DNA of 64,000 nt from Candidatus Angelobacter sp. (GCA_035569495.1 DATMMX010000047.1:75937-139936), one strand, 5' to 3'. Shown: positions 11,161-48,306, numbered from the stretch's first letter. A program made the numbers and translations. The notes: a model not told the origin generated them from the letters alone.

Positions 11161-11203
11161 TGGTCCTTCCAGAAAAAGTAAGTACTCCTTACTATATCTG
11201 CCC
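11161..11203. promoter_or_regulatory. 43-bp AT-rich divergent control region with perfect inverted repeat AGTAAG-N5-CTTACT
   Basis: The sequence is tggtccttccagaaaaAGTAAGtactcCTTACTatatctgccc. AGTAAG (11177-11182) and CTTACT (11188-11193) are perfect reverse complements. The repeat is embedded in the only AT-rich stretch between the divergently transcribed PhyH1 operon and GH31 gene. Candidate -10 elements are on both strands (TATATC on the plus strand 6 nt before ATG 11204; TATAGT on the minus strand). Confidence 0.5.
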
Positions 11204-17946: not shown

Positions 17947-20213
17947 GCGAAGCGCCTCCGCAGCACCCGCGCCCGCCGTCGCGAGCGAGCCGCGCCCGCC
18001 ACCGGAGCGGGCCACGGGTTGGGCAGGCTGCGATCGTACGGCTCGCGCAGCGACGCCCGCGACGACAGGGCGAGCACCCGGGTCAGCCAGGGCTGCCCCC
18101 TGGAGAGCCGTCGCCGCAGCGAGGCACCCATCTCCCGCGCCGCCGCCACGTCCTCGGCCTGCAGGTCACGGGCCAGGTCGCCCCAGAGCGCGCGGGTGAC
18201 CAGCCAGGCGTACTCCTCGTGCTCCTCGTCGGGGCTGAGCCGGTCGAGGAACTCGAGGGGGGTGGACCAGGGGTCGCCGGCGCGCAGGTCGCCGGCCAGG
18301 TCGCGGAACTCCGCGTACTCGACGGCGATCTCGGCTGCGGCCCCGAACGCCCGGGCGTGGCGGCGCCGCCTGCGCCCGCGCCAGAGCTTGAGCGGCCAGG
18401 GGAAGAACATCACCAGCACGGCGGCGGCGACGCCGATGGGGGCGAGCACGGCCAGCCACCAGCGCACCACCTGGTAGAGCAGCAGCGCCGAGCTGGCGTC
18501 GGTGGGCACGTAGAGCTGCAGCGACACCTCCTCGGCGGGGTGGATCAGCGGGCTGTGGTTGGCCGGGTTGGCGTCGAGCGGGGAGACGGCGTGGGCCGGG
18601 ACGCCGATCACCGGCACCCAGCCGTAGCCCTCGAAGTACACCTCGGCCCAGTTGGCGCCGTGCCGCGGACGCAGCTCGACGCCGCCGCCCGGGACGGGGT
18701 CGCCACCGTAGAAGCCGTAGCCGAGCCGGGCGGGCAGCCCCGCCCAGCGGGCCAGCAGCACCTGGGCCGCGGCGATCTCGTAGGGCGACGCCCTGCCGCC
18801 GGCGAGCATGGCCACCACCCGCGACGGCGGGGTCGGCCCGGGCACGCCGGGACCGGCGGCGACGACGTGGTCGTAGAGCGCCTGGCGCAACGCCTGGAGA
18901 CGGTCCCACGGGTTGCGCGGCGCGTTGTCGAGGAGGTGGCGCACCTCGTCCGGGGCGGCGGGGATCCAGGTGTCGTCAGGGTTGACGCCGCGCGGGCTGC
19001 CTGCGGCCGACAGGTCCTGCGCGCTGGGCGGCTTCTCGCCGCTGACCGTGTAGGTGAAGGCGCCGGTCGGCGCGGCGGGCAGCATCAGCGCGCCGCTGCG
19101 CGGGTCGTACTGGGCGCGGCCGCCCTGCAGGTTGACGTGGGTCGCGCCCGCCGGGGCGGGCAGCACGCGCTGTTCGGGGTCGACCACCGTGACGGTGTAG
19201 TCCTGGGTCGCGCCCTTCAGGGTGGTCAGCGGCTGGTCACCGGCGACGTTGACCAGCCGGGAGGGGTCGTAGGGCGGCAGCAGGAAGTCGCTGCCGTCGT
19301 AGCTGTCCAGCTCGCCGAGGCGCCAGGGGCCGGAGAGGTCGCCGGGACCCCGGACCCTGGCGATGGCCCGGTCCTTGACCTGGTCGGGCGGGACCACCTG
19401 GGGCTTCTGCGGGGGGAGGGCGCGGGTGGCCACCGCGGCGGGGAAGAGGAAGCTCGAATGGTTGAGCACGACCAGGGCGACCAGGGCGAGGGCGAGGGCG
19501 CCGGCCCCGCGCAGGGAGCGGCGCAGCTCGAAGCCGCGACTGCCGCCGCTGCCGCCCAGCTCGGCGGCGTAGAGCACCATCAGTCCGGCGACCACCAGCA
19601 CCAGCGAGACGCCGGCGCCGAGCACGCCGCCGTCCGGGGGCTGGAGCAGGGCGCCGGCGAGCACCACGGGGAGGGGCAGGGCGAGGGCAAGCCGGGGCCG
19701 GGACGTGTTGAGCACCAGCGTCGCGGTGGCGGCGGCGAGCAGGATGCAGAGAGCGACCAGCACGAACCGCCAGCCGGCATCGAAGGGCACGGGGGGCTGG
19801 AGCAGGCCGCCGCCGCTGACCGCGGACTGCACCGCTTCGAGGGGGGAGACGCGGCTGTCGGTGGCGACGCTGACCAGGGAGGCGGCGACGAAGGCGGCCG
19901 GAAGCAGGGCGAGGCCGGCGACGCCGGGGCGGCGGGAGCGGGCGACGGCGGCGGCCGCGGCGACGCCGAGGGCGGCGCAGGCCAGGGCCAGGGGGCGGGC
20001 CTGCGGCGAGTCGAAGACGCCGCCGAGCATCCAGGCGGCGGCGGCGCTGCTGAGCAGGGCGGCCAGGCAGGCGCGGCGCACGGAGAGTGTGGGCTCTGCG
20101 TCGTCGCCGGGCGTGGCCACCGGGACCGGAAAAGCGGCGGGCACCCCCGCAGCGGCTTGGTGGTCGGGCCCGGCAACGGGAACGGAGGTTTTCGCGGGCG
20201 GCTCGACGATCAT
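17943..20213 (-). CDS. Transglutaminase-like (TgpA-type) membrane protein with C-terminal DUF4129-like region
   Basis: ATG (MIVEPP…) overlaps the DUF58 stop (ATGA). Six N-terminal TM helices are followed by the transglutaminase core (…ASPYEIAAAQVLLARWAGLPARLGYGFYGGD…HGANWAEVYFEGYGWVPV; the ASPYE Cys-position is degenerate here). A further TM helix and an acidic/Arg-rich tail follow. Confidence 0.65.
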   Translation of the reverse strand: MIVEPPAKTSVPVAGPDHQAAAGVPAAFPVPVATPGDDAEPTLSVRRACLAALLSSAAAAWMLGGVFDSPQARPLALACAALGVAAAAAVARSRRPGVAGLALLPAAFVAASLVSVATDSRVSPLEAVQSAVSGGGLLQPPVPFDAGWRFVLVALCILLAAATATLVLNTSRPRLALALPLPVVLAGALLQPPDGGVLGAGVSLVLVVAGLMVLYAAELGGSGGSRGFELRRSLRGAGALALALVALVVLNHSSFLFPAAVATRALPPQKPQVVPPDQVKDRAIARVRGPGDLSGPWRLGELDSYDGSDFLLPPYDPSRLVNVAGDQPLTTLKGATQDYTVTVVDPEQRVLPAPAGATHVNLQGGRAQYDPRSGALMLPAAPTGAFTYTVSGEKPPSAQDLSAAGSPRGVNPDDTWIPAAPDEVRHLLDNAPRNPWDRLQALRQALYDHVVAAGPGVPGPTPPSRVVAMLAGGRASPYEIAAAQVLLARWAGLPARLGYGFYGGDPVPGGGVELRPRHGANWAEVYFEGYGWVPVIGVPAHAVSPLDANPANHSPLIHPAEEVSLQLYVPTDASSALLLYQVVRWWLAVLAPIGVAAAVLVMFFPWPLKLWRGRRRRRHARAFGAAAEIAVEYAEFRDLAGDLRAGDPWSTPLEFLDRLSPDEEHEEYAWLVTRALWGDLARDLQAEDVAAAREMGASLRRRLSRGQPWLTRVLALSSRASLREPYDRSLPNPWPAPVAGAARSRRRARVLRRRFA

Positions 20214-21481
20214 CGGCGGATGCCCGCGCCGCCGCCGAACACCGCCGCCAGCGGCGTGCGCGGCCGCAGCTGCACCACCTGGCACCCCAGCGCCGCCGCA
20301 TGGGCCAGCGCGGTCGGATCGCTCTCCTCCCACACCAGCACCACCAGCACCACGTAGGCGCCCTGGTCGACGAGCAGCTTCAGCCGGGTCGCGGCGCGGT
20401 CGTCCACGTGCGGGGTCACCACCACGTGGTGCACGTCGCGGCGCACATTGCGCACCACCCGCTCGACCACGGTCTGCAGCGGCTCGGCCTCGCGCTGCAC
20501 CCGGGCCATGGCATCGAGCAGGTTGGTCTGGTCGCGCACCCCGCGGAGCGAGGGCGCCAGCGTCGCGCCGTTGGTCTCGACACTGACCGCGAAGCCGTCC
20601 CTGAGGTACCGCAGGCCCAGCGACGCCGCCGTCCGCACCGCCGCCTCGAAGGTGTCGCTGGGGTCGCCCGGGCTGTGGTGGCGGGAATCGGTGTCGAGGA
20701 CGATGGCGACGCGGTCGGTGATGCCCTGCTCGAACTCGCGGACCATCATCCGGCCGGTGCGGGCCACGGCGCGCCAGACCACGCGGCGCAGGTCGTCACC
20801 GGGCGTGTAGCGGCGCATGCCGTAGAACTCGAAGCCGCTCGGCCATGGCTTGGAGACCGGTGGCCGCACCGGCGGGTCCTCCCACTGGCGGGTGAGCGGC
20901 GTGTCCTGCACGCCCTCGGTCTGCGGGTGGACGAGGATCTCGCCGGCCTCGGCGACCACCACCTCGCGCCGGGTGAAGCCGAACGGGTCGCTCCAGATCG
21001 CGGTCAGCGGGCCCACCTCGTAGACGCCGCGGAGCTGCGGGGTCATCGCGTAGCGGTAGGTGGCGTCGCGTCCGGGGGCGACGGACTCGAGCTGGATGCG
21101 GCGGCTGCGGCCGAGGTGGGGATGCAGCTTCTCCTCCAGCACCAGCCCGGTGACCCGGCGGCGCGAGCTGAAGGTCAGCTCGACGTCGACGAGCTGGCCC
21201 TGGCGGACGCGCGTGGGCAGCTCGCTGCGCACGGCGTCGAGCGCCTGGCGCTGCCGGCCCAGCCACCAGGCCAGGGCGAGCACCACCAGTCCGCCGTAGA
21301 CCAGCAGGTAGAGGGTGCGGCTGCCCAGCAGCCGGGCGAGCAGCCAGCCGGCCACGGCGCCGCCGACGAGCATGGCGCCGCCCGCGGTCAGGCCGGTGCG
21401 CGCCAGCACGCGGGCGAGCGTGGGCACCTCGAAGCGCCAGGAGGGGCGCCACGGCGGGCGGCGGCTGCGGATGGCCTGCAT
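20210..21481 (-). CDS. DUF58-domain protein (VWA-like, MoxR partner)
   Basis: Two N-terminal TM helices are present. The core …GFEFYGMRRYTPGDDLRRVVWRAVARTGRMMVREFEQGITDRVAIVLDTDS… is characteristic of DUF58 proteins encoded next to MoxR ATPases. There are 7 nt between the MoxR stop and this ATG. Confidence 0.75.
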   Translation of the reverse strand: MQAIRSRRPPWRPSWRFEVPTLARVLARTGLTAGGAMLVGGAVAGWLLARLLGSRTLYLLVYGGLVVLALAWWLGRQRQALDAVRSELPTRVRQGQLVDVELTFSSRRRVTGLVLEEKLHPHLGRSRRIQLESVAPGRDATYRYAMTPQLRGVYEVGPLTAIWSDPFGFTRREVVVAEAGEILVHPQTEGVQDTPLTRQWEDPPVRPPVSKPWPSGFEFYGMRRYTPGDDLRRVVWRAVARTGRMMVREFEQGITDRVAIVLDTDSRHHSPGDPSDTFEAAVRTAASLGLRYLRDGFAVSVETNGATLAPSLRGVRDQTNLLDAMARVQREAEPLQTVVERVVRNVRRDVHHVVVTPHVDDRAATRLKLLVDQGAYVVLVVLVWEESDPTALAHAAALGCQVVQLRPRTPLAAVFGGGAGIRR

Positions 21482-21487
21482 GGGTGC

Positions 21488-22516
21488 CTAGCCGAGCGCC
21501 GCGAGGGCCTCGGTGCCGCGGACCAGCCGCTGGGGGGGCGCCGAGCTGCTGACCAGCGGCGGCTTGACCCGGCCGACCACGCGCTCCAGCACCTTGTCGA
21601 CACTCTCGCCGCGGAGCTGCGCCTCGGGGCTGAGGATGAGGCGGTGGCTCATCACCGGGTGGAGCAGCGCTTTGACGTCGTCCGGATACACGTCCTCCCG
21701 CCCCTGGCTGGCGGCGAGGACGCGCGCCGCCCAGAGCAGCGACAGCGAGGCGCGCGGGCTGGCCCCGAGGGTGAGCGCGGCGTCGTGGCGGGTGGCCTGG
21801 ACGATGTCGATGGCGTAGCGCAGCACCGGCTGGGCGACGGTCACCCCGCTGGCCCACTCGATCATCGCCACCACCTCGGGCAGGTCGACCATCGGCTGCA
21901 GCCGGTCGATGGCGGGCTGGCGGCCGTTGGCCATCAGCACCTCCTCCTCCGCCTCCGCCGACGGGTAGCCGATCGAGAGCTTGAAGAGGAAGCGGTCGAG
22001 CTGCGCCTCGGGGAGCGGGAAGGTCCCGGCCAGCTCGATGGGGTTCTGCGTGGCCAGCACCAGGAACGGCCGCGGCAGCGCGTGGGTGGTGCCCTCGACG
22101 GTGACGGTGCGCTCGGCCATGGCTTCGAGCAGCGCACTCTGCGTCTTCGGCGTCGCGCGGTTGACCTCGTCGGCGAGCAGGATGTTGGCGAACACCGGGC
22201 CGGGGCGGAAGGTGAAGGTCATCCGCGCCTGGTCGAGGATGCTGCTGCCGGTGATGTCGCCGGGCAGCATGTCGGGGGTGCACTGGATGCGGCCCACGTC
22301 GGCGTTGACGGTGCGCGCGATCGAGCGGGCGAGCATCGACTTGCCGACGCCGGGCGCGTCCTCGAGGAGCAGGTGTCCCTCGGCGAACATCGCCACCAGG
22401 GCCATGTGGACGACGTCGCCCTTGCCCTTGATCACCCGTTCGACGTTGGCCTGGATCTCCTCGAAGCGCCGGGTGAAGCGCTGCGCATCCATGGGCGGCA
22501 GGGCGGGAAGTGGCAT
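21488..22516 (-). CDS. MoxR-family AAA+ ATPase
   Basis: ATG with GGAGGAG upstream. Walker A is LLEDAPGVGKSMLARSIA and Walker B is FANILLADEVNRATPKTQSALLEAMAE (sensor/arginine finger context). The conserved MoxR C-terminal helical domain is present. The ORF-track extension to 24940 is read-through in another frame of the upstream gene. Confidence 0.9.
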   Translation of the reverse strand: MPLPALPPMDAQRFTRRFEEIQANVERVIKGKGDVVHMALVAMFAEGHLLLEDAPGVGKSMLARSIARTVNADVGRIQCTPDMLPGDITGSSILDQARMTFTFRPGPVFANILLADEVNRATPKTQSALLEAMAERTVTVEGTTHALPRPFLVLATQNPIELAGTFPLPEAQLDRFLFKLSIGYPSAEAEEEVLMANGRQPAIDRLQPMVDLPEVVAMIEWASGVTVAQPVLRYAIDIVQATRHDAALTLGASPRASLSLLWAARVLAASQGREDVYPDDVKALLHPVMSHRLILSPEAQLRGESVDKVLERVVGRVKPPLVSSSAPPQRLVRGTEALAALG

Positions 22517-22542
22517 GGGGATCTCTTTCTCCTCCAACGGAA

Positions 22543-25592
<3,050 letters not shown>

Positions 25593-27842: not shown

Positions 27843-27998
27843 TTCCCTGGCACGTGCGCTGGTCCTCCATCCGCCGCGCTTCTCTTCCCCGGCCCGCCTT
27901 CGGCCACGCTCGGCCGCGCCCCAACCACGCTATTCTCCGCGCCCGTATATGATTTCGTCAATATTACTGCCTAATTGTGCGGCGACAAGGAGACGGAC
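27843..27998. promoter_or_regulatory. Divergent intergenic control region containing conserved motif ATTGACGAAAT (minus-strand orientation) and GGAG RBS of the GH31-GH13 gene
   Basis: An AT-rich island ccgtatatGATTTCGTCAATattactgcctaattg lies in otherwise GC-rich DNA. The reverse complement ATTGACGAAATCATATAC contains a -35-like TTGACG for the minus-strand Liv/MoxR operon. The same 11-mer recurs at ~51662-51672. Confidence 0.45.
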
Positions 27999-30900
27999 GT
28001 GTCGATCCCCGGTGCACTGGCTGACGGCTCGCTGGTCACCGTCCCGCCCACCTGGCGACCCGCGCAGCCGCTGAGCCTGCCGTCCCCCCTCGACGGCGCG
28101 ACCCTCAGCACGGGCACGGGTGACGCCGTCCCGCTCGACATCCGTGCCGTGGGGGAGGGTGTGCACGCCATCGAGGGAACGTCCGCCGGCGCGCAATCCC
28201 TGCGCCTGGATCTTCCCTGCGGAGCTCTGGACGCGTTCGCGGGTGGCGGCGCCCAATTCGTGTCCATGAATCTGCGCGGGCGGGTGCTCGACGGCTGGCT
28301 CACCGACGCGGCCAGCGGGCAGACCTACTTCCACGCGCCGGTGCTGTACTCGTCGGCGGGGTGGGCGCTGGTGGTCGACACCGTGCTGCGCTATTCGATC
28401 GACTGCGCCGCGGCGTCCGCATCGGTCGTGTCGGTGACCGTTCCGGCGCCGTCCCTGCGGGCGTTCCTGATTGTCGGGACGCCGCGTCACTGCCTGTCGG
28501 TGGTGACCGAGATGACCGGGCGGGCGCCACTGCCGCCGCCGTGGGCGTTCGGGGTGTGGCACAACGTGCGCTCGGGCCCTGCGGCGGTGATGGAACAGGC
28601 GTCGCGGTTGCGCGCCGAGCGAATCCCGGCGAGCGCGCTGTGGATCGACGACCACTACTGCGCGGAGCACAACGACGGCGACGGGTTTCCAGGCAACTAC
28701 CGGCTGGCGCGGTACGGCTCGGTGCCGGAGATGCGCGCCCTGGTGGATTCCGTGCACGGGATGGGTTTCAAGGCGCTGTCGTACCTGAACTGCATGGTGT
28801 ACCGGGATACGCCGTGGTTCGCGGATGCGGTCCGGCGGGGGCTGGTGGTGCGCGACGCATCGGGGGCGCCGCTGCTGATCCCGTTCTTCAACCCGCTGCA
28901 CGCGCGCTCGGGGATCGTGGACTTCGAGGAGGACGCGGCGGCGATCCTCGACTTCAGCAATCCGCTGACGGTGGCGGCGTGGCAGGACAACGTGCGCGCG
29001 CTGCTCACCGGGGTGGGCTGGGATGGGTGGATGGAGGACTTCGGCGAGCAGCTGCCCGCATCAGCGGTCCTGCATGACGGCAGTTCCGGCGCGGATGCGC
29101 ACAACCGCTATGCGCTGCTGTACCACGGCGCGACGGCGTCGGTGCGCGCCGCTGCGAAGCCCGATGCGGTGGTGTTCGCCCGCTCGGGGTATCTCGGCTC
29201 GCAGGCGCTGCTGCCCGCCTACTGGGGCGGTGACCAGCTCTGCGAGTGGAGCGGCGAGTTCGGCATCGGCAGCGTCCTGCCTGCAGGGTTGTCCGCGGGC
29301 CTGATCGGTGTGAGCACGTGGGGGTGCGACATCTCGGGGCTGTTCGCCATGCCCGAGAAGCCGCTGTCGACGGGCGCGGGCGATCGGGAGCTGTGGATGC
29401 GCTGGGTCCAGCTCGGCGCGCTGACGCCGGTGATGCGCACCCACCTCGGCTTCAAGCCGTCGCCCACGCCGCCGCTCGACCTCTGGCACGACGAGGAGAT
29501 GACGGCGCACTTCCGCAGGTTCGCGGAGTTCCACGTGCGGCTGTTCCCGTACCTCGACACGTGCGCGCGAGAGAACGTGGCGACGGGCGTGCCGATCATG
29601 CGCGCCATGCTGCTGCAGTTCCCCGACGACCCGGTGTGCTGGACGCTGGGCGACCAGTACATGCTGGGGCCGTCGCTGCTGGTGGCGCCCGTGCTCTCGC
29701 GTGGTGCGCGCACTCGGCGCGTGTACGTGCCGGCGGGGGAGTGGCTGGAGCTGGGCACGGCTGTCGTGCACGCCGGGCCCGGGTGGGTCACCGTGGACGC
29801 GCCGCTCGACCGTGTCCCCATCCTGCAGCGGGCCGGCACGATGGTGCCGATGCTGGCAGAAACTCCGGAGACCCTGGCCGAGCCGCGCTTTGCATCGGGC
29901 GGGTACGACGTTGAGCTGCTGGTGGCGCCGGTTCCCGGCGCGGGGTCGGAGGCCGTGCTGGGCGACGGGACGCGGCTCTCGCTGGCGGGCGCGTCGCTGA
30001 CCGTGGACGGTCCCGAGCGCACCTACGTGGTGAAGGCGAACGGGGCCTTCATGGGCCTGGCACGCGGGACGGCGCTGGACTTCGAGCTGTCGCCGGCGGT
30101 GCGGCTCGCCTCGGCGGGAGTGCTCGACCCCGCTGAGCGGTCGGCGGCGTTGCAGAGTGCCCGTGCCGATGAGTCGGCGCAGGGAGTGCACCACGACGAG
30201 GCCATCTCTCCGGAGCCGCCGCGACCGGGAGTTGCAACCGTGGTGCGGGCGCGCGCCGCCGCTGGGCTCGGTGTTGCTGCCGGGTTCGTCCATTACACGA
30301 CGGACGGGTCCTCGCCGGAAGAGGCCTCGGAGACGCGCGCGACGGTCCGCATGCAGCCCGTCGCCGGTGGTTCGTGGGAGGCGTCGATCCCGCCGCAGCC
30401 CGAGGACGCCGTGCTGCGCTACGCCATCGAGATGCGTGACGCGCAGGGCGCGCCGCTATGGGCCGAGGACGCCGGCCCCGGCCTGGAACACCCCGATCCC
30501 GACGTGCCCTTCGTCCGTCCCGCCGCGCGCGTCTTCCGCCACGTCGTGCAGCGGCCGCGGGTGCCGTCGTGGATCGGCGAGGCGACCGTGTACCACCTGC
30601 TGGTCGACCGCTTCGCCCGCGACGACGGCTCCGCGGTCGCGCCCCCCGACGGCGTGCGCTTCCTGCAATTCGCCGGTGGCACGCTGCGCGGCATCACCTC
30701 GCGCCTCGACCGACTCGCCGCCCTCGGCGTCGACTGCCTGCTGCTGTCGCCGATCACGCCGGGCGAGATGCACGTCACCTACGACGTCAAGGACCTGGTC
30801 GCCGTCGACCCGCGCTTCGGCACCCTCGACGACGTGCGCACGCTGCTCGGCGAGGCGCACGCGCGTGGCATCCGCGTGCTGCTCGACACCGAGACCTCGT

Positions 30901-31949
30901 ACCTCGGCGTGCGCCATCCCGCCGCGGTGTCGGCGCGCACCGACCCGTCCAGTCCCCATCGCTCCTGGTTCCACTGGCACCACTGGCCGGACCGCTGGTA
31001 CAGCTGGTTCAGCGGTCGCATCTTCATGGGCGTCGACCACACCAACCCCGACGCGCGCCGCGCCCTGCTCGACGCCGCCCGCTTCTGGATCGACCTCGGC
31101 TTCGACGGCTACCGTCTCGACTCCGCCGCGGCCACACCGTTCGAGTTCTGGTCGGAGTTCGGCGAGGTGGTGCGCCGGGCCAACCCCGACGCCGTCACCC
31201 TCGCCGAGGCCTTCGGCGACGCGAGCTTCGTCCGCCACTACCGCGGCCGCCTCTCCGGCGTCCTCGACTTCCACGTCTCTCACCTGCTCCGCCAGTGCTT
31301 CGCCACGTGCGACGAGCCGCTCGCCGCTCTCGACGCCGTGATGCGCACCCGCGCCACCGAGACGGCCGAGGAGGACGGCGAGCTGGTTCGAGCCATCTTC
31401 GTCGAGAACCACGACATGCCCCGCTTCTCCCGCCTCGCCGGCGAGGACGACCGGCGCCTGCTGTTGGCGCTGACCGCCCTGCTGACACTGGGGCCGCCGC
31501 CGATCCTCTACTACGGCAGCGAGGTCGGCCTGCGGCAGGGCGCGCGTCTCGGCATCGACCCTGATGCGCGGCTGCCCATGCTATGGGACTCGTCGCAGGA
31601 CGCTGCGCTGCTCGACCGCGTGCGCGCCCTGGTGCACCTCCGTCGCGACCTGCCCGCACTGCGGCGGGGTGTCTGGCGCTCGCTGCTAGCGTCCGACCAT
31701 GCGATGGCCTACCTGCGCGACGCGGGCGGTCTGGATCGCGCGGTCGTGGTGCTGCGGCGAGACGGCACGGCGGCGGGCATCGACGTTCCGCTCGGCGACG
31801 TGTGGGCTGACGGCACCCGCGTGCGCGACGTGTTGGGCGTTGCCGCGGACACCGTCGTGCGCGGGAGCACCACGCGCATCACGCTCCCGCCGTGGAGCGC
31901 CGCGGTGCTCGTCAGGTCCGATCAGGGAGCCGCGAACGCCGGCCGGTAG
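27999..31949 (+). CDS. Bifunctional-architecture glycosidase: N-terminal GH31 domain fused to C-terminal GH13 (alpha-amylase family) domain (~1316 aa)
   Basis: GTG 27999 with GGAG 7 nt upstream (ORF track starts at TTG 27975). The GH31 blocks are LWIDDHY… and GVGWDGWMEDFGEQLP (acid/base region; compare YicI FKTDFGE). The C-terminal domain is GH13 (GVDCLLLSPIT, GIRVLLDTE, GFDGYRLDSAAA = region II with nucleophile Asp, LAEAFGD = region III, FVENHDMPRF = region IV). No signal peptide. Confidence 0.7.
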   Translation: MSIPGALADGSLVTVPPTWRPAQPLSLPSPLDGATLSTGTGDAVPLDIRAVGEGVHAIEGTSAGAQSLRLDLPCGALDAFAGGGAQFVSMNLRGRVLDGWLTDAASGQTYFHAPVLYSSAGWALVVDTVLRYSIDCAAASASVVSVTVPAPSLRAFLIVGTPRHCLSVVTEMTGRAPLPPPWAFGVWHNVRSGPAAVMEQASRLRAERIPASALWIDDHYCAEHNDGDGFPGNYRLARYGSVPEMRALVDSVHGMGFKALSYLNCMVYRDTPWFADAVRRGLVVRDASGAPLLIPFFNPLHARSGIVDFEEDAAAILDFSNPLTVAAWQDNVRALLTGVGWDGWMEDFGEQLPASAVLHDGSSGADAHNRYALLYHGATASVRAAAKPDAVVFARSGYLGSQALLPAYWGGDQLCEWSGEFGIGSVLPAGLSAGLIGVSTWGCDISGLFAMPEKPLSTGAGDRELWMRWVQLGALTPVMRTHLGFKPSPTPPLDLWHDEEMTAHFRRFAEFHVRLFPYLDTCARENVATGVPIMRAMLLQFPDDPVCWTLGDQYMLGPSLLVAPVLSRGARTRRVYVPAGEWLELGTAVVHAGPGWVTVDAPLDRVPILQRAGTMVPMLAETPETLAEPRFASGGYDVELLVAPVPGAGSEAVLGDGTRLSLAGASLTVDGPERTYVVKANGAFMGLARGTALDFELSPAVRLASAGVLDPAERSAALQSARADESAQGVHHDEAISPEPPRPGVATVVRARAAAGLGVAAGFVHYTTDGSSPEEASETRATVRMQPVAGGSWEASIPPQPEDAVLRYAIEMRDAQGAPLWAEDAGPGLEHPDPDVPFVRPAARVFRHVVQRPRVPSWIGEATVYHLLVDRFARDDGSAVAPPDGVRFLQFAGGTLRGITSRLDRLAALGVDCLLLSPITPGEMHVTYDVKDLVAVDPRFGTLDDVRTLLGEAHARGIRVLLDTETSYLGVRHPAAVSARTDPSSPHRSWFHWHHWPDRWYSWFSGRIFMGVDHTNPDARRALLDAARFWIDLGFDGYRLDSAAATPFEFWSEFGEVVRRANPDAVTLAEAFGDASFVRHYRGRLSGVLDFHVSHLLRQCFATCDEPLAALDAVMRTRATETAEEDGELVRAIFVENHDMPRFSRLAGEDDRRLLLALTALLTLGPPPILYYGSEVGLRQGARLGIDPDARLPMLWDSSQDAALLDRVRALVHLRRDLPALRRGVWRSLLASDHAMAYLRDAGGLDRAVVVLRRDGTAAGIDVPLGDVWADGTRVRDVLGVAADTVVRGSTTRITLPPWSAAVLVRSDQGAANAGR

Positions 31950-32764
31950 CCACTGCGCAGCATTGCCGCGTAGCGCGACTCATGAGCTTGGGCCGTCTCG
32001 CGAAGTTGGCGGTTGCGCCTGTCCGGCTCGGTGACGTGCCATGCCGGGTGGTAGCTGAAGATGAGCAGGCGGCGCGGCAGGGCGGTGCGGTTGTCGCGCG
32101 AGTCGTGGAGCAGGCCGGAGTGGAAGATCAGCGCTGAGCCGGCGGGCTGGGGGACGTCGTGCATGTCCGCGTCGGGGACGATGCCCTCGGGCAGCACCGG
32201 GTGGTGCGGCGCCTGGATCGGCCAGTCGCGCAGGTGCGAGCCGGGCAACACGCGCATGCAGCCGTTGTCCAGCGTGGTGTCGTCGACGGCGAGGGCGACC
32301 GAGAGCGACACGCGCGGGTAACCGTTGTGGTCGAAGTACGACCAGTCGCAGTGCAGGTCGAAGGAGTCGCCCTCGCGGGCGGCGGCGATGGGCAGGTTGC
32401 CGGGAAGGAGCTGCTTGTAGTTGAGCTTCTCCTCCATGGGCACCGGCTCGCTGTCGAGAATCGAGCGCAGCGGGGCGAGCAGGCGCTCGTCGGTGAGCAC
32501 CCGCGCGATCAGCGCCGACACGTCACTGAGTGGCTGCACCTTGCGCAGGCTGATCGCCTCGCCGCGACGGCAGACGTCGAGGCGCGGGCTGTTCTCGCCG
32601 AGTGCGATGGAGGCGTTGACGGTGAGCTCCATCAGGTGGTCGGCCTCGTCGCGCAGCGCGGCCAGCTCCGCCGCGGTGAGCAGGTCGTGCACCAGCACGA
32701 AGCCGTCGCGGCGGTAGTCGTCGAGCTGTTGCGCGCGGAGCGCGGTCGACGACGGCGCGATCAC
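31922..32764 (-). CDS. Phytanoyl-CoA dioxygenase (PhyH) family oxygenase, paralog 2
   Basis: GTG start (VIAPSSTALRAQQLDDYRRDGFVLVHDLL…) overlaps the upstream stop (GTGA). The HxD context is HCDWSYFDHNG and the distal His is LIFHSGLLHDS. The ORF-track N-terminal 116 aa (R-rich) are rejected. The 3' end overlaps the convergent GH31-GH13 gene by ~28 nt. Confidence 0.7.
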   Translation of the reverse strand: MIAPSSTALRAQQLDDYRRDGFVLVHDLLTAAELAALRDEADHLMELTVNASIALGENSPRLDVCRRGEAISLRKVQPLSDVSALIARVLTDERLLAPLRSILDSEPVPMEEKLNYKQLLPGNLPIAAAREGDSFDLHCDWSYFDHNGYPRVSLSVALAVDDTTLDNGCMRVLPGSHLRDWPIQAPHHPVLPEGIVPDADMHDVPQPAGSALIFHSGLLHDSRDNRTALPRRLLIFSYHPAWHVTEPDRRNRQLRETAQAHESRYAAMLRSGYRPAFAAP

Positions 32765-33507
32765 CCGGCGTCCTCCGCGAATCCCACGGACCAGATGGCG
32801 CCGTCGCGCGCCAGGTGCGACACAGCTGCGGGAACGTCGTCCTCCAGCAATGCGGCGGACAGTCGGTCGACGTCGCAGATGAGGCCGAGGCGCACCGGGC
32901 CGAGACCAGCCTCGACCTGGCCGACCAGCGCGGCGGCGTCGCGTCGCGGCGGCCGCGTGGCGCCGTCGAGGTGGTCGAGCGAGGTGAGCAAGACGATGCG
33001 CCCGGCATCGATGCGGGCCAGCAGCGTCGCGGCGCAGTTGTCGCCGTCGTAGAGGGCGAGCAGGGCCCACGCGCCATCGGCGCGGCGCAGGATCTCGGGC
33101 AGGGCACGCCACGGATTCGCGGGCGGCGCGGGCGCGGTGGCGATGGCGGGCGACGACCAGAAGCGATCGGCGTTGTCCCAGAAGACCTCGAGCTGGGTGC
33201 GTTCGGCGAAGCGAATGCGCGCCAGCTCACCGGCCAGCTCGTCGCTGCGGGTGCGGTCGTAGAGCACCACCCGGTCGGCGCCCGTGGCGGCGAGCAATTC
33301 CGCGGCGCGCTCCCGGGCATCCTCGAACGGCTCGCGGTGCGTGGCGAGCGCCCCATCGCGCGAGCTCACCACATGGACCACGCGTCCGGCGTCGTGCAAC
33401 ACCGAGACGACCTGCGCACCGCGCCGCTGCCGCGTCTCGGCCAGCGCGCAGATCACCCCGAAGCCCACCGGCTCCAGGTCGCAGATGACGACGTCGGTGG
33501 CGATCAC
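32761..33507 (-). CDS. Hypothetical protein (248 aa), no recognised domain
   Basis: GTG start (VIATDVVICDLEPVGFGVICALAETRQ…) overlaps the TGA of the GH35 gene (GTGA). Normal amino-acid composition; only the C-terminal third of ORF 32761..34770 is believable. Confidence 0.45.
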   Translation of the reverse strand: MIATDVVICDLEPVGFGVICALAETRQRRGAQVVSVLHDAGRVVHVVSSRDGALATHREPFEDARERAAELLAATGADRVVLYDRTRSDELAGELARIRFAERTQLEVFWDNADRFWSSPAIATAPAPPANPWRALPEILRRADGAWALLALYDGDNCAATLLARIDAGRIVLLTSLDHLDGATRPPRRDAAALVGQVEAGLGPVRLGLICDVDRLSAALLEDDVPAAVSHLARDGAIWSVGFAEDAG

Positions 33508-35447
33508 CGCGACACCGTCCAGACCTGCGCACCCCAGGCGGGCATGGTCACGGTCAGCGCCGGATGCGCAACCCCGCCTCCCACGGCGTCGTTCCAGCGC
33601 GAGGCCAGCTCCGCGGGTGCGGCGGCCGTGATGGTCGCCACGCACGGCTCGCCCGAGTGGTTGAACGCCGCCAGCACCTCGCCTCGCGGACCGCTCCAGT
33701 GCCGCAGCCGCACCGGCCCCTCGCTCACGGTGAAAGGTGGGCGCGGCAGCAACGGCTGCAACGCATCGGGGTCCTCCAGCACAGTGATGCCCTCGGCATC
33801 GAAGCCGTGCGGTCGCAGCGCGCCGTCGAGCACGGGCAGTTGCGGCCCGACGAACACCGACGCGCCCTTGCTCGCCGCCTCCCGGAGTCGCTCCCACGCC
33901 GCCGCGTCGGCGACCTCCGCGGCCGGCATCACGATGCACGCGTACCTGGACAGGTCCGGCAGCGCCGACGACGAGGCGTGATCGTGGTCGACGCTGTTGC
34001 GGTCGAGAACGGCACGAACCGCCGCGTCGAAGCTGCGCACGGCGGCGTCGTCGGCGTGGGGGAGACGGGTGAGCTGGAAATCGAACGGCATCTGCGCCGA
34101 GAACGCCGGTACCAGGCCGCCGAGAGTGGCCCGGGCCTCGCGCCGCAGCGTCTGCTCGCGGTTCTCCACCAGCAGCACGGGCGCGGTGCGCTCCATGGCA
34201 TCCAGCCCAACTTCCTCGCGCAGCCCCATCACCCGCCTGAGCAGCCCACCGAACTCGGCGCGGACGTTGCCGTGGCGGTCGACAGGACTGCCGTACCAGC
34301 GATCCCGCTCGACGGTCATGAAGAAGTTGCAGGCGCGTGCACCGGTGAGCAGCGCCACCAGCCAGACCAGCTCGGCGTCGGCGGGCCCGACCCGCATCGG
34401 CAGCAGCCAGGGCATGGCCAGCCAGCCCGCGCCCATCTCGGCCATCCACGGCAGCCGCGATCCCGCGGCGATGTGGCGCGCGATGTCGGCGACGAATCCC
34501 GCGCCGGGCCGCGCTGCGTATACGTCGATGGCGGCGACGTCGACGGCGTCGCTCCGCTCCAGCGCAACCGAGTCGAGCGGCGTGTCCAGGCGGGGGAAGT
34601 CGTTGTGAAAGGTGGGAACGCGGTCGAGTCCGCGATCGCACAGCCCGTCGCGCAGGCGCCGCAGCGTGATGCGCAGCGCCTCCTCGCGCCAGCGCAGCCA
34701 GTCGAGGCGGCGCACCTCGGGCTCGTCGCCGGCGTCGCGTGGGGGATCGACGTCCTCCAGCCCGTCCCACGCGGTGCCGTACAGCGCGTTGACGGCGTCG
34801 AGCGCGCCGTGGCGCCGCACCAGCCAGTCGCGGTAGGCGTCGAGCGTCTGCGGGTGATAGTCGAGCGCGTACGGGTGGGACTGGAAGAAGTAGCCGTGCT
34901 CGTTGTCCACCTGCACGGCGACGATGGGGCCGTCAGGATGCTGCAGCGGGGCGAGCTGCGCGACCACGCTGTCGTACCAGCGGTCCACGGCGGCGAGGAA
35001 GTGGTCGGAGAAGTAGGACGGCACGCGGATGTGATGCGTCGCGGTCGGCAGCGTGTAGGGGACGCCGTTGCAGCGCAGGGCCTGAAGCCGGGCGTCGCTG
35101 ACGACGCGCATCGGCAGGCCGCTGTCGAGCAGCTCGGCACCCTGGTGCGGACCGGGGCGCACCACCGCATATAGACCGCGCTCCTGGACCATGCGCAGGA
35201 AGCGCGCCACGTCGAGGTTGCCGGTGAAGTCGGGCGGGTCGTCGCCGCGGTCGTGCACCGACCAGGGGACGTAGGTGTCGACGCTGGTCAGGCCCAACGA
35301 GGCGACGGCGTCGAGGATGCGCGGCCAGTCGGCGGGGTCGTGGCGCCAGTGGTGGACGGCGCCGCTGAACATCGGCAGGATGCGGCCGTCGCTGAGGCGC
35401 AGTCCGCGGTCGGTGACCGTGACGGTGCGCACGGCGGTGTCGATCAT
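33504..35447 (-). CDS. Glycoside hydrolase family 35 beta-galactosidase-like protein
   Basis: ATG (MIDTAVRTVTVTDRGLRLSDGRILPMFSGAVHHWRHDPADWPRILDAVASLGLTSVDTYVPWSVHDRGDDPPDFTGNLDVARFLRMVQERGLYAVVRPGPH…) overlaps the SBP stop (ATGA). The conserved GH35 acid/base block is VQVDNEHGYF (compare IQVENEYG). Confidence 0.7.
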   Translation of the reverse strand: MIDTAVRTVTVTDRGLRLSDGRILPMFSGAVHHWRHDPADWPRILDAVASLGLTSVDTYVPWSVHDRGDDPPDFTGNLDVARFLRMVQERGLYAVVRPGPHQGAELLDSGLPMRVVSDARLQALRCNGVPYTLPTATHHIRVPSYFSDHFLAAVDRWYDSVVAQLAPLQHPDGPIVAVQVDNEHGYFFQSHPYALDYHPQTLDAYRDWLVRRHGALDAVNALYGTAWDGLEDVDPPRDAGDEPEVRRLDWLRWREEALRITLRRLRDGLCDRGLDRVPTFHNDFPRLDTPLDSVALERSDAVDVAAIDVYAARPGAGFVADIARHIAAGSRLPWMAEMGAGWLAMPWLLPMRVGPADAELVWLVALLTGARACNFFMTVERDRWYGSPVDRHGNVRAEFGGLLRRVMGLREEVGLDAMERTAPVLLVENREQTLRREARATLGGLVPAFSAQMPFDFQLTRLPHADDAAVRSFDAAVRAVLDRNSVDHDHASSSALPDLSRYACIVMPAAEVADAAAWERLREAASKGASVFVGPQLPVLDGALRPHGFDAEGITVLEDPDALQPLLPRPPFTVSEGPVRLRHWSGPRGEVLAAFNHSGEPCVATITAAAPAELASRWNDAVGGGVAHPALTVTMPAWGAQVWTVSR

Positions 35448-37165
35448 GCTTCGCAGGAGCCGCTGAAGTAGGGGTAGCCGGCGGGCACGGTGGCGTCGGT
35501 GACTCGGCGGCCGTGGTTCACATAGCACCACACTCCCTGCTGTCCCCACGGCCCAGTCGTGGTCGCCGAATACCACACCATGGCGCGGTCTTTCATGAAG
35601 GTGTAGTCGGTGTCGAAGCCGACGGTGCCTTCGAAGTAGGCACTCGGCGGGTTGGGGAAGTGCGTCTTCCACAGCCCGGCCTGGAAGGTCTGCGGTGTGA
35701 GGTGCGGTCCGGCCATCTGCAGCCCGGAGACCAGCATCAGCTCCATCTCGTAGCCGAACCAGCCGTTGTAGCTGGCGGGCGCGTATGGCCACGGGTAGCT
35801 GGGATCCTCCTGCATCACGGCCCAGTACCACGGGTTGTTGGGCGCGGCCACCAGCTTGTTCTCGTAGTCGAAGCCGAAGGCGTGATTCCACTGGTCGGAC
35901 GGCTGCAGGCCCGAGCCCCACCCGGTGTTGTACGAGAAGTAGCCCATCATCCACTCGGGGTGGTAGCCGGCGGTGTCCGCCTGCTGCAGCACCTGCAAGG
36001 TGCTGGCGGCGTGGCTGATGAAGAGCACGGTGGTGATGCCGTCGGTGTCGAGCTGGGCGACGGCCTGCTGCGCCTGCTGCGTGGACGTGCTGCTGCGGTT
36101 CTGGTAACCGACGCCCGACGATGCCGGGACGTAGTCCACCCCCAGGGTGTCCTTGGGCGCAATCGTGATGCCGCAGGCGGTGAGGTCATCGAGCAGATAG
36201 TGGAGGTCGATGGAGGCCGAGTCCGGGTAGCTGGTGTAGACGATCCCGAATTTCCGCTTCCCTTGCAGCACGGTGGGGGCGGCGTACGCCGGAGGCGGCT
36301 GGTCGCGCAGCCTGCACGCCTGGGCGGCCATGTTGTGCTCGTCCACGTCGTACGGTGGGTAGTAGTTCCACTCGTACGGCGCGGCGCGCTGGTAGTCGGC
36401 CGAGCTGCGCAGGTCGGGGCGGGCGGTCACCGAGACGATCCGATTGCGCGCCAGCTCGTCGAAGAAGTACTTCTCGCGTCCGCCGGCGTCCGGGCAGCCG
36501 AGCACCGCGAACACGTTCGCCTCGGCGGCGACGGTGTCGGCCCTCTGCACCATGGTGGCCTGCGGGCTGTCGCTGTCGCCCCCGCACTTGACTGGGACCA
36601 GCTCGATCTGCCGCCCGTAGAGCTGGAAGCGGTCGTTGAAGAACTTGTTCCACAGGTCGGTTGCGTTCTGCCCCTCGCCGAGACCGATGCGAATCGTGTT
36701 GGCGTCGACGCCCTTCCAGGTGCTGCCGCCGTTGTCGCCCTTCCAGTACGGCACGCACGGTGGCGACTGCGTGTCCTCGATCTGCCGCGGTCCGCCCGGG
36801 CCGTCCACGCAGTCGAGCGTGCGCGGCACCGAGGTGCCGCCCTGGTTGCTGGCGGCGCCGAGACCATTGGAGTTCGCGAGCGGCGTCGGCGTCGGCGCCG
36901 GGGTCGGCGTGGCGCTGCCCCCGCCTGCCTCGCCGTTGCCGTTCTGGTTGGCGCCCTTCCCGGCGGTGCTCGCCTGGTCGGGCGGCGGCTTGGTGATGTT
37001 CTGCTGGGCGACGGGCGCGAAGGCGGCGACCGGGGGCAGCGGGGGACGCGGCGGGTGCAGTGCGGGCAGCAGGGCGAGCACGAGCAGCGCGCTCAGCCCC
37101 GCGTAGGTCAGCCCGAGGCGCCGCCCACCACGGCGGGAGCGGCTTGCGCCGGCGACGGTGGCCAC
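35444..37165 (-). CDS. Secreted periplasmic-binding-protein type I (Leu/Ile/Val-binding-like) substrate-binding protein, 573 aa
   Basis: GTG start with GGAGG RBS. The signal/TM is LGLTYAGLSALLVLALLPAL. A long P/T/G-rich linker precedes a type-I PBP-like core (…RIGLGEGQNATDLWNKFFNDRFQLYGRQIELVPVKCGGDSDSPQATMVQRADTVAAEANVFAVLGCPD…). No cognate ABC permease/ATPase in this operon. Confidence 0.5.
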   Translation of the reverse strand: MATVAGASRSRRGGRRLGLTYAGLSALLVLALLPALHPPRPPLPPVAAFAPVAQQNITKPPPDQASTAGKGANQNGNGEAGGGSATPTPAPTPTPLANSNGLGAASNQGGTSVPRTLDCVDGPGGPRQIEDTQSPPCVPYWKGDNGGSTWKGVDANTIRIGLGEGQNATDLWNKFFNDRFQLYGRQIELVPVKCGGDSDSPQATMVQRADTVAAEANVFAVLGCPDAGGREKYFFDELARNRIVSVTARPDLRSSADYQRAAPYEWNYYPPYDVDEHNMAAQACRLRDQPPPAYAAPTVLQGKRKFGIVYTSYPDSASIDLHYLLDDLTACGITIAPKDTLGVDYVPASSGVGYQNRSSTSTQQAQQAVAQLDTDGITTVLFISHAASTLQVLQQADTAGYHPEWMMGYFSYNTGWGSGLQPSDQWNHAFGFDYENKLVAAPNNPWYWAVMQEDPSYPWPYAPASYNGWFGYEMELMLVSGLQMAGPHLTPQTFQAGLWKTHFPNPPSAYFEGTVGFDTDYTFMKDRAMVWYSATTTGPWGQQGVWCYVNHGRRVTDATVPAGYPYFSGSCEA

Positions 37166-40155: not shown

Positions 40156-40542
40156 CTACACACGAGGCTCGAGGCCCGGTGCGCCGGTGACGGTGCGCCA
40201 GGCCTCGAAGCCGGCGAGAAACGCGACGATGCCGGCCACCGGAAGGGCGATCTCGATGGCTTCGAGCACCTCCTGCGCGGTGAGCCCAAGGTCGAGGGCC
40301 CGCTGGATGTGGCTGGTCAGGAACTCGGGCGGCGCCCGGTGCACGGTCAGCCCCATGATGATGAGGAGCTGCTTGGTCCGCATGTCGAGGGACCGCTCCG
40401 CCTCGTAGCTCTCGTGGGCCAGCGCGTTCATCGCCTGCAGCACGCCGAAGTCGTGGCGCGCCATCACCTTGTGGTACGTGGGCACGTAGCCGCGTCCGGC
40501 CGCCATGCGGTCGATGTAGGCCTGGGCCTCGCCGTCGCTCAC
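40156..40542 (-). CDS. Carboxymuconolactone decarboxylase (CMD/AhpD-like) family protein, paralog 1
   Basis: MSDGEAQAYIDRMAAGRGYVPTYHKVMARHDFGVLQAMNALAHESYEAER… is typical CMD. The ATG overlaps the PhyH3 stop (ATGA). The C-terminal 30 aa are near-identical to paralog 2 (LPVAGIVAFLAGFEAWRTVTGAPGLEP). Confidence 0.8.
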   Translation of the reverse strand: MSDGEAQAYIDRMAAGRGYVPTYHKVMARHDFGVLQAMNALAHESYEAERSLDMRTKQLLIIMGLTVHRAPPEFLTSHIQRALDLGLTAQEVLEAIEIALPVAGIVAFLAGFEAWRTVTGAPGLEPRV

Positions 40543-41372
40543 CGGGTCACCAGGCGGAACGCCGGGTGGTCGAAGGGCTCGCCGACGACCAGGCCGTAGC
40601 GGTCCGCGTCGTGGATGTGCTCGTCGCCCTGCACCAGCGCGCCGGTGAAGCGCGTGTCGGCGGGGAAGTAGTTGATGACGAACGCCCAGCGCGGCCGGCC
40701 GGTGGTGTTGGCGGGCGCGCCGTGCACCGTGCAGCCGTGGTGCACGGTGGCGTCACCGGGCCGGTAGTGGAGCTCGGCGGCCAGCGGGTACTGCTCGTTG
40801 AGACCGGGGTAGACGTCGAAGATGTCCTTGCCGTCGTCGAACCAGCGGCCCAGGTTGCCGAGCAGGTGGGAACGGCTGTGGAAGCGCAGCGCGCCCATGT
40901 CCGGCGTCACCTCGTCGAGGGCGATCCAGAAGCCGATGAAGCCGGTGCGATCCATGGCCAGGGTTGGGAAGTCCTGGTGGTAGTAGGTCTCCCCATACTC
41001 CACCGGCTCCTGCTTCTGCAGCTTGCCGAGCTTGACCGCCAGCATGTTGGCGTAGGAACGGATGCCGACCGAGCGCTCCATCAGGCGCTGCGCGTTGCGT
41101 CCGATCTGCTCGCCGTAGCCCACGGCCTCGAACAGGTCGTCCTCGTCGGCGATGTCGTGGTAGTCGTGCCAGGAGGGGTGGCCGATCAGGTCCTTGCCGG
41201 CGCGCAGCACGCTGGCGTCGCCGTCCGGGCCCATGCGCTGCTTGGCCCGCCCCAGCAGCTCCGCCGCCAGCGCCGGCGAGATGAGCTGGTCGAGCTTGGC
41301 CCAACCGTGCTCCCGGTAGTGGGCGACCTCCTGGTCGGTCACCTCGCGCATGTCAACGTGTGGCGTGTTCAT
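40539..41372 (-). CDS. Phytanoyl-CoA dioxygenase (PhyH) family oxygenase, paralog 3
   Basis: ATG (MNTPHVDMREVTDQEVAHYREHGWAKL…) with GGAGAG RBS. The HxD context is YYHQDFPTLAMDRTGF and the distal His is HHGCTVHGAP. Confidence 0.75.
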   Translation of the reverse strand: MNTPHVDMREVTDQEVAHYREHGWAKLDQLISPALAAELLGRAKQRMGPDGDASVLRAGKDLIGHPSWHDYHDIADEDDLFEAVGYGEQIGRNAQRLMERSVGIRSYANMLAVKLGKLQKQEPVEYGETYYHQDFPTLAMDRTGFIGFWIALDEVTPDMGALRFHSRSHLLGNLGRWFDDGKDIFDVYPGLNEQYPLAAELHYRPGDATVHHGCTVHGAPANTTGRPRWAFVINYFPADTRFTGALVQGDEHIHDADRYGLVVGEPFDHPAFRLVTR

Positions 41373-42243: not shown

Positions 42244-42244
42244 C

Positions 42245-43120: not shown

Positions 43121-43129
43121 GGCATCTCC

Positions 43130-45847: not shown

Positions 45848-45848
45848 C

Positions 45849-46592: not shown

Positions 46593-46598
46593 GTCAGC

Positions 46599-48244: not shown

Positions 48245-48306
48245 GTCGGCAATAACCTCGTGCTGTTCTCCAACCGGCCGCCAGCCTGGGTGTGCCCCTG
48301 GTGTGG

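Follow-up and report, generated by a model that had tools for sequence, protein, structure and literature searches.

A rare, conserved fusion of divergent GH31 and GH13 modules beside a Liv-type transporter operon of uncultured soil bacteria

A gene encoding a GH31-GH13 fusion protein

The window analysed here is a stretch of 64,000 nucleotides from a record labelled Candidatus Angelobacter sp. (GCA_035569495.1, DATMMX010000047.1:75937-139936). This work concerns one gene of its + strand, which encodes a protein of 1316 residues made of an N-terminal module of glycoside hydrolase family 31 (GH31) and a C-terminal module of family 13 (GH13). The gene is divergent from an operon for a Liv-type ATP-binding cassette (ABC) transporter, a MoxR AAA+ protein, a DUF58 protein and a transglutaminase, and genes for a PhyH-family dioxygenase, a GH35 enzyme, a solute-binding protein and a second GH31 enzyme lie on its other side (Table 1). 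The joining of these two known families is genuine, rare and conserved, and both modules are divergent.

A preliminary description of the locus, made from the sequence alone, had proposed this architecture, and its proposal was borne out by Pfam domains, motifs and full-length orthologues. The open reading frame (+ strand, 27975-31949) encloses the gene, whose start codon is likely GTG 27999, and codon-position GC along the whole frame is coding-like (0.73/0.53/0.91). The product is titled "TIM-barrel domain-containing protein" at NCBI. On the GH31 side, Pfam matched the barrel (PF01055, residues 177-519, E 1.5e-47), the C-domain (PF21365, residues 530-615, E 7e-25) and, weakly, the N-domain (PF13802); on the GH13 side, it matched Alpha-amylase (PF00128, residues 868-1203, E 1.6e-44) and Neopullulanase-like_C (residues 1227-1303). 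The matches to both halves are far beyond chance. The five motifs listed in the preliminary description are all found in the protein: WIDDHY at residue 215, GWMEDFGE at 343, GYRLDSAAA at 1037, AEAFGD at 1069 and ENHDMPRF at 1136. AlphaFold (AF2) models of the two halves had a predicted local distance difference test score (pLDDT) of 86 for GH31 and 88 for GH13, with a predicted template-modelling score (pTM) of 0.90-0.91.

A Sec/Tat signal peptide or membrane anchor was looked for in the fusion protein; no hydrophobic N-terminal or internal segment and no RR motif were found. The maximal 19-residue hydropathy in the first 70 residues was 0.91; the neighbouring binding protein, which served as a positive control, reached 1.93. 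The N-termini of the 11 fusion orthologues are variable and non-hydrophobic. Judged by its sequence, the protein is cytoplasmic, as had been proposed.

Among the 5.8 billion clusters of one collection, no more than 11 full-length ones, besides fragments, have the fusion architecture. It was also found in only two metagenome-assembled genomes among 185,579 species genomes (one "uncultured Actinomycetes", one Candidatus Dormiibacterota), and in one further full-length protein from JGI metagenomes (locus L094). These orthologue clusters come from NCBI, JGI, ENA and Logan assemblies; because independent assemblies from four sources, L094 included, share the same architecture, the fusion is not an assembly or frameshift artefact. 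In conclusion, the fusion is rare and is conserved in uncultured soil bacteria. In the searchable literature no paper was found to describe such a fusion, and the hyphenated term GH31-GH13 designates gene sets in polysaccharide utilisation loci.

The window record carries the label of a genus placed in the Acidobacteriota, whereas the closest fusion orthologues (69-75% and 53% identity), with their syntenic locus, are labelled Dormibacterota. The GC content of the window is about 72%, which we take to suit Dormibacterota better than Acidobacteriota, and the Candidatus Angelobacter label may be wrong.

Table 1. Coordinates of the fusion gene, its domains and catalytic codons, and its neighbours in the window
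Feature	Position	Strand	Remarks
Fusion gene	27999-31949	+	1316 aa plus stop; product identical to NCBI HXA29982.1
AAGGAG ribosome-binding site	27987-27992	+	6 nt ahead of GTG 27999
GH31 N-terminal beta-sandwich, residues ~30-176	28086-28526	+	shorter than that of YihQ
GH31 (beta/alpha)8 catalytic barrel, residues 177-525	28527-29573	+	
Loop after beta3, residues 215-239, WIDDHY..NDGDGfPGNY	28641-28715	+	clade-specific, acidic, low model confidence
Codon of D347, GH31 nucleophile (GWMEDFGE)	29037-29039	+	aligned to EcYihQ D405; invariant
Codon of D412, GH31 acid/base (YWGGDQ)	29232-29234	+	aligned to EcYihQ D472; invariant
GH31 proximal and distal C-terminal beta-sandwich domains, residues 526-700	29574-30098	+	
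Junction, residues 701-746	30099-30236	+	helix, then conserved GVHHDEAISPEPPRPG segment
Ig-like N-domain of GH13 unit, residues 747-852	30237-30554	+	as in Amy703 and TVAII-type enzymes
GH13 A/B catalytic barrel, residues 853-1225	30555-31673	+	
GH13 region I variant LLDTETSY	30879-30902	+	canonical DxxxNH; TVAII DAVFNH
GH13 region II R1039-L-D1041, Arg and nucleophile Asp	31113-31121	+	aligned to TVAII R323/D325
GH13 acid/base E1070 (region III)	31206-31208	+	aligned to TVAII E354
GH13 region IV H1138-D1139	31410-31415	+	aligned to TVAII H420/D421
GH13 C-terminal beta-sandwich (Neopullulanase-like_C), residues 1226-1316	31674-31946	+	
Shared divergent control region	27843-27998	.	156 bp intergenic
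Fused LivH+LivM-type ABC permease, 749 aa	25593-27842	-	conserved partner, divergent from fusion gene
MFS domain fused to LivF- and LivG-type ATPases, 1017 aa	22543-25596	-	conserved partner
MoxR AAA+	21488-22546	-	transporter operon
DUF58	20210-21481	-	transporter operon
Transglutaminase/TgpA	17943-20213	-	transporter operon
PhyH-family Fe(II)/2-oxoglutarate dioxygenase	31922-32764	-	conserved; convergent, overlaps fusion 3' end by 28 nt
248-aa protein, no family match	32761-33507	-	frequent partner
GH35	33504-35531	-	frequent partner
Solute-binding protein, 573 aa, membrane-anchored	35444-37165	-	conserved; weak Peripla_BP_6 match
Second GH31, YicI/5F7C-like, 764 aa	37188-39482	+	frequent partner; in 4/5 orthologous loci

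The GH31 half is close to sulfoquinovosidases but lacks their sulfonate-binding residues

Residues ~30-700 form a complete GH31 unit, with a short N-terminal beta-sandwich, the barrel and two C-terminal beta-sandwiches, and the Asp pair stands where the family has it, the nucleophile after beta4 and the acid/base after beta6. Alignment to EcYihQ corrected one assignment: the GWMEDFGE block, previously taken for the acid/base, holds the nucleophile D347, and the acid/base is D412 in YWGGDQ. Neither residue varies among the 11 fusions or 50 relatives. At beta3 the motif is DDHY; the YicI-like protein P0104 has DCFW instead.

The top sequence matches of this half in the PDB are all sulfoquinovosidases of GH31_13 (EcYihQ 5AED, BmSQase 8R56, AtSQase 5OHS and the Eubacterium rectale enzyme 6PNR; E ~1e-56 to 1e-54, 24-27% identity). 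They have in common with it the domain order, the nucleophile motif GWM[AE]DFGE, the acid/base motif W[AG]GDQ and the His of MRTH. The structural matches of the model (E ~1e-49 to 1e-52) included YicI, FjDex31A and sulfoquinovosidases, as well as the cycloalternan-forming enzyme (5F7U, 5I0D) and the transglucosylase Agd31B. Sulfoquinovosidases recognise the sulfonate by a Q/E-RWY motif, which in EcYihQ consists of Q288, R301, W304 and Y508 (PMC12780224). In the alignment to EcYihQ this motif is not present in the GH31 half, where the corresponding residues are D217, G229, G232 and L448; moreover, the N-domain is about 70 residues shorter and, unlike the sulfoquinovosidases, the module is fused to GH13. 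A sulfoquinovosidase identity was rejected on the absence of the RWY residues, despite the PDB neighbours. The place of the sulfonate-binding R301 and W304 of YihQ is occupied by the clade-specific loop that follows beta3. H188, N189 and H219 were considered as a new anion site, and this candidate was dropped because the residues are not kept in the split orthologue described below.

A search seeded with that split orthologue recovered about 17 stand-alone GH31 proteins of 550-715 residues (P0317-P0333). In the beta3 loop, N-x-G is common to all of them and G-x-Y to most, and the fuller N-x-G-x-G..G-x-Y is found in about ten; they also have GWM[EQ]D[FM]GE, W[GP]GDQ and, mostly, HLGF. By these sequence signatures, the GH31 half and P0317-P0333 form an uncharacterised GH31 sub-clade (NxGxGxPGxY), whose members bear inconsistent names in the source records.

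The GH13 half keeps the catalytic residues and has an atypical region I

The second half has the layout of the TVAII/neopullulanase/cyclomaltodextrinase group and of the alkaline amylase Amy703 (8JNX), with the same Ig-like N-domain, A/B barrel and C-domain. Foldseek matched it to TVAII, neopullulanase and Amy703 with E values of 1e-47 to 1e-48 (TMq 0.78 to 8JNX). Regions II, III and IV had been recognised in the preliminary description, and alignment to TVAII supports this reading: the Arg and nucleophile Asp of region II, the Glu of region III and the His-Asp pair of region IV are all present on the barrel, and the five residues are invariant in the fusions. The substrate contacts F286, D465 and R469 of TVAII align to F1004, D1187 and R1191.

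Region I, which the preliminary description did not mention, is atypical. The DxxxNH form is canonical in most GH13 members, although not strictly universal; in the fusion protein the Asn-His is lacking and the sequence reads DTETSY. All fusions and about 20 stand-alone relatives have the variant LDxExS[YMF], whereas the next clade out has LDFVxNH. Region V is FMGVDH versus MPKLR in TVAII, and region II is LDSAAAT versus LDVANEV. Neopullulanases, cyclomaltodextrinases and maltogenic amylases of the GH13_20 type are marked by MPKLN in region V and VANE in region II, as is also visible in the TVAII alignment; the GH13 half lacks these signatures although it has the extra N-domain. It reaches no NCBIfam equivalog cut-off. 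We take the contacts of GH13 enzymes with O6, with O2/O3 and by stacking to be made here by the same positions as in the family at large. On this assumption, the stacking Tyr (Y928) and the O2/O3-contacting residues are retained, and the sole contact changed is the usual O6-contacting His of region I, which is Tyr, Phe or Met in the variant clade.

This clade is small: together with the fusions it comprises about 20 stand-alone clusters (50% identity) among 1.84 billion representatives, and it is defined by SY in region I, VDH in region V and RLDSAxxx in region II. The next clade out, largely from Chloroflexota and Cyanobium assemblies, has LDFVxNH, MPQxN and RLDYAxGP. One protein of this neighbouring canonical-motif clade, P0205, is a 1188-residue GH15-GH13 fusion, so that the GH13 lineage has been joined to other alpha-glucoside hydrolases more than once.

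Stand-alone GH13 relatives start with the same helix and GVHHDEAISPEPPRPG segment that are found at the junction of the fusion. As the junction thus matches the extreme N-terminus of these proteins, the end of a GH31 gene was joined to the start of a GH13 gene, end to end.

Both barrels are under similar constraint, and a split relative exists

Conservation was assessed on 11 full-length fusion orthologues of 49-100% identity. The catalytic residues of both halves and the equivalents of the TVAII contacts are invariant or nearly so. The two barrels are the best conserved parts of the protein: mean pairwise identity is 68% for GH31 and 63% for GH13, and 33% and 26% of their columns, respectively, do not vary, whereas the linker and N-domain show about 41% identity. 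The ratio of non-synonymous to synonymous substitutions (dN/dS) relative to the closest orthologue was 0.21 for GH31 and 0.24 for GH13. The two barrels are therefore under similar purifying constraint. The preliminary description had considered that a module without its catalytic residues would be a remnant resembling a carbohydrate-binding module; both sets are present and conserved, neither half looks like such a remnant, and from their residues both are apparently active.

A relative in which the two modules are encoded separately was found at locus L097, on a distant metagenome contig (Ga0326597_10001738). The GH13 variant (2809-4782, 657 residues, 38% identity; motifs LIDFEASYLG and RLDSAHGSS) precedes a GH31 gene (4779-6926, 715 residues, 41% identity) whose product belongs to the same sub-clade as the GH31 half of the fusion. 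Beside the pair, whose reading frames share 4 nt, are genes for a transglutaminase-like protein and a ROK regulator. The pair differs from the fusion in being two proteins, in its reversed order, GH13 then GH31, and in not keeping H188, N189 and H219. The presence of the same modules in fused and split form (a Rosetta-stone pattern) indicates that the two halves share a pathway, and the reversed gene order indicates that the fusion needed a rearrangement. Stand-alone members of both sub-clades also exist as full enzymes.

Other enzymes with two complete barrels in one polypeptide, acting on related bonds, are the GlgX/4-alpha-glucanotransferase fusion (NF011083), the GH31-GH31 maltase-glucoamylase (9KZ6) and the GH15-GH13 protein P0205. 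These are like the present fusion in that respect; they differ from it by combining families other than GH31 and GH13, and the partners in the fusion are divergent sub-clades.

The fusion gene has a conserved transporter and enzyme neighbourhood

The neighbourhood was compared in five orthologous loci whose fusion proteins are 51-83% identical to that of the window, that is, in six loci including the window. In all five, the fusion gene is divergent from the LivH+LivM permease / MFS-LivF-LivG / MoxR / DUF58 / transglutaminase operon, and a PhyH-family dioxygenase and a binding protein of 550-600 residues always flank it; this neighbourhood is kept down to about 50% identity of the fusion protein. 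The divergent arrangement with a shared control region, as proposed earlier, is further supported by a conserved block in the intergenic region. This AT-rich block, TATGATTTCGTCAATATTACTGCCTAA, lies at 27948-27974. Of the five orthologous loci compared, all but L085 conserve its core, GTCAATAAT, and two of these four have fusion proteins only ~51-53% identical to that of the window. The block overlaps a promoter-like TTGACG-18-GAGAAT on the minus strand (27961..27932).

Beside the stand-alone GH13 variant, the binding protein, transglutaminase and DUF58 genes are retained in L087 and L091, and MoxR and the MFS-ABC ATPase also in L087; the GH13 variant is thus the constant partner of the transporter set. 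With respect to the trio itself, the variant is linked to MoxR/DUF58/transglutaminase in L087, to DUF58/transglutaminase in L091 and to the transglutaminase-like gene in L097. This linkage, with the place of the trio in the importer operon, suggests that it helps to assemble or regulate the uptake system.

Several proteins of this set have unusual forms. The MFS-LivF-LivG protein has about 1030 residues across the orthologous loci, with the MFS domain N-terminal; the triple fusion is found in all fusion loci and beside the stand-alone GH13 variant of L087, and in the window its gene has a 4-nt overlap with MoxR (22543-22546). In the P0010 locus (L085), separate genes encode the LivH-like and LivM-like permease halves. 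No neighbour of the GH13 variant is more constant than the 573-residue binding protein, which carries a membrane anchor at its N-terminus and contains a long Pro/Thr/Gly-rich linker; no sequence relative of it was found in the PDB. The PhyH protein that is convergent with the fusion is only distantly like ectoine hydroxylase. The GH35 and 248-residue proteins are encoded in four of the six fusion loci read (the window, L081, L082 and L086) and are absent from L084 and L085. Among solved structures, the GH35 protein is closest to 7VKX, an Ignavibacterium beta-1,2-glucosyltransferase (E 1e-27, confined to the N-terminal part), rather than to a classic beta-galactosidase; beta-galactosidases are also near, and its sole NCBIfam match is a weak one to exo-beta-glucosaminidase.

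A proposed two-site enzyme for an imported glycoside

With moderate confidence, we propose that the fusion is a cytoplasmic enzyme with two sites, each cleaving a different alpha-glycosidic bond of the same imported small glycoside. The substrate would be captured outside the cell by the 573-residue binding protein and imported by the divergent Liv-type ABC system. Both retaining alpha-glycosidase sites (D347/D412 in GH31, D1041/E1070 in GH13) are predicted from residue conservation to be functional, and they would act in sequence on the two bonds of this glycoside or oligosaccharide; the PhyH dioxygenase, the second GH31 and the GH35 enzyme may process its remaining parts. In this scheme we infer hydrolysis, not transfer, as well as the order of the steps and an alpha-gluco-configured sugar at subsite -1. 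Around the sugar C6 both pockets are unlike those of characterised enzymes, so the substrate is probably not plain maltodextrin. The preliminary description had suggested sequential processing of an alpha-glucan or oligosaccharide by the two modules. Action on a shared substrate is backed by the split, translationally coupled pair of L097; the isomalto-, cycloalternan- or trehalose-related substrates that it named received no specific support.

Several observations weigh against this proposal. Neither sub-clade has a biochemically characterised member, and since both families include transglycosylases, hydrolysis is an assumption. The best-scoring NCBIfam model for the GH31 half, that of YihQ (PRK10426), gave 313.7 bits, below its cut-off of 553, and the YicI alpha-xylosidase equivalog (PRK10658) gave 252.5 bits against a cut-off of 606; on the GH13 half, the cyclomaltodextrinase model gave 152.6 bits against a cut-off of 540. 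A region I devoid of the O6-contacting His could leave activity on ordinary alpha-glucosides weak or altered. The importer beside the fusion is of the HAAT type (amino-acid/urea), not of the CUT1 type that is typical for oligosaccharides. Finally, the opposite order of the modules in fused and split forms means that physical channelling between the sites is not implied.

Ordinary alpha-glucan housekeeping, essentially the view of the preliminary description, is one alternative: the GH13 module would trim maltodextrin, pullulan or cyclodextrin-like oligosaccharides, and GH31 would act as an exo-alpha-glucosidase that finishes them to glucose. The best GH13 matches (TVAII, neopullulanase, cyclomaltodextrinase and Amy703), the retention of the TVAII contacts and of the stacking Tyr, and the starch-type chemistry that P0205 suggests for the wider group all fit this scheme. 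It is nevertheless unlikely, as no mal, glg or CUT1 genes were found in the loci examined, where the constant partners are the HAAT-type importer, PhyH, esterases and an SDR, and as the change of NH to SY in region I, regions II and V unlike those of the neighbouring canonical clade, and a GH31 half closest to sulfoquinovosidases rather than to alpha-1,4-glucosidases all point elsewhere. Taken together, this set of partners, the lack of mal and glg genes and the divergence of the modules argue against a routine alpha-glucan role, without thereby designating a substrate. One way to account for pockets rebuilt around C6 would be the catabolism of a C6-modified glucoside, sulfoquinovosyl or 6-deoxy-glucosyl (quinovosyl), the released sugar being converted by PhyH and SDR enzymes; in the analogous sulfo-SDO pathway, 6-oxo-glucose is reduced by a reductase. 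This scheme would have a precedent in GH31 sulfoquinovosidases without RWY that are paired with an Fe/2-oxoglutarate sulfoquinovose dioxygenase, SqoD, whose step belongs to the sulfo-SDO pathway (PMC12780224). It would also agree with the sulfoquinovosidase matches in the PDB, the clade-specific loop at the sulfonate-binding place, the replacement of the O6-contacting His by Tyr, Phe or Met, the PhyH gene that always flanks the fusion, the SDR and second PhyH of the extended island, and the isomerase, FGGY kinase and aldolase genes, typical of 6-deoxyhexose pathways, that adjoin relatives. These last hints, seen around acidobacterial GH31 relatives, P0171 and P0185, show no consistent pattern. 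We consider the scheme distinctly unlikely: R301, W304 and Y508 of YihQ align to Gly, Gly and Leu, the acidic loop is unfavourable for a sulfonate, the cationic or polar candidates H188, N189 and H219 are not conserved in the split orthologue, PhyH is another family than the TauD-type SqoD, and no sulfite exporter or sulfoglycolysis genes were seen in the window.

A transglycosylase or isomerase, building or rearranging a non-reducing or cyclic alpha-glucoside in the manner of the cycloalternan-forming GH31 or of a TreS-like GH13, could also be invoked, as both families contain transferases, the cycloalternan-forming enzyme and Agd31B are among the structural matches of the GH31 half, and the TreS N-terminal model matches the GH13 half (E 1e-37). 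That match amounts to 130 bits against a cut-off of 678, no synthase partners accompany the fusion, and the cluster looks catabolic, with its binding protein, importer, additional exo-glycosidases and, in related loci, a ROK regulator, which makes such an activity very improbable. Finally, the missing His of GH13 region I and the GH31 N-domain, shorter than that of YihQ, might suggest that one half is dead and acts only in binding or oligomerisation. Across the 11 orthologues and in the split pair, however, both halves keep their nucleophile, acid/base and auxiliary Arg, His and Asp without variation, conservation and dN/dS are similar for the two barrels, and stand-alone full enzymes are known in both sub-clades; this hardly credible explanation was rejected on residue conservation and dN/dS.

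Few alpha-glycosidase families are as well studied as GH31 and GH13, yet both modules lie outside the characterised subgroups. The fusion, its split relative and its rigid neighbourhood constitute unusually strong genomic evidence for one pathway, and the module pair is a well-defined target for discovering a new substrate specificity. The locus also points to a role in carbohydrate uptake for Liv-type ABC transporters with odd fusions in an uncultured soil lineage labelled Dormibacterota. Should the substrate prove to be ordinary maltodextrin, the fusion would be only a modest architectural curiosity. More speculatively, and with doubts outweighing our confidence, the LDxExSY GH13 and NxGxGxPGxY GH31 sub-clades could define a new alpha-glycosidase specificity for a non-starch glycoside, imported by an MFS-carrying HAAT-type ABC transporter tied to the trio of MoxR, VWA-like DUF58 and transglutaminase. 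Such a glycoside may be a C6-modified glucoside or a glucoside conjugated to an amino acid or organic acid. If true, this would be a previously undescribed glycoside-scavenging pathway of Dormibacterota-like soil bacteria.

Other genes of the window

The island extends upstream, over 7464-16326. This extension encodes a ROK regulator (7464-8696), an esterase (8735-9550), an SDR (9543-10307), a PhyH-family protein, a third GH31 enzyme (11204-14176, 990 residues, DUF5110) and an S15/CocE-type hydrolase (14173-16326). The ROK, PhyH, SDR and esterase set recurs in the P0009 locus (L084). Three PhyH-family genes, all on the minus strand, are present in the 64-kb window (10330-11661, 31922-32764 and 40539-41441); the call at 10330 overlaps the third GH31 gene by ~450 nt, and one of the two starts is probably wrong.

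A second Liv-type ABC set lies on the minus strand at 40156-50714, with a permease-ATPase fusion of 905 residues (43130-45847) and a binding protein (46599-47828). The same region carries two FAA-hydrolase genes and genes for CMD-family proteins, a type III CoA-transferase and an acyl-CoA dehydrogenase. In the genome of the window, importers of the Liv type that have fused components seem to be common. Outside the island, a GH5 protein of 800 residues (58310-60712, + strand) adjoins a protein of 894 residues (60743-63427, minus strand) in which multiple Kelch repeats accompany a weak GH39-like region; both genes add to the glycan-active ones of the window.

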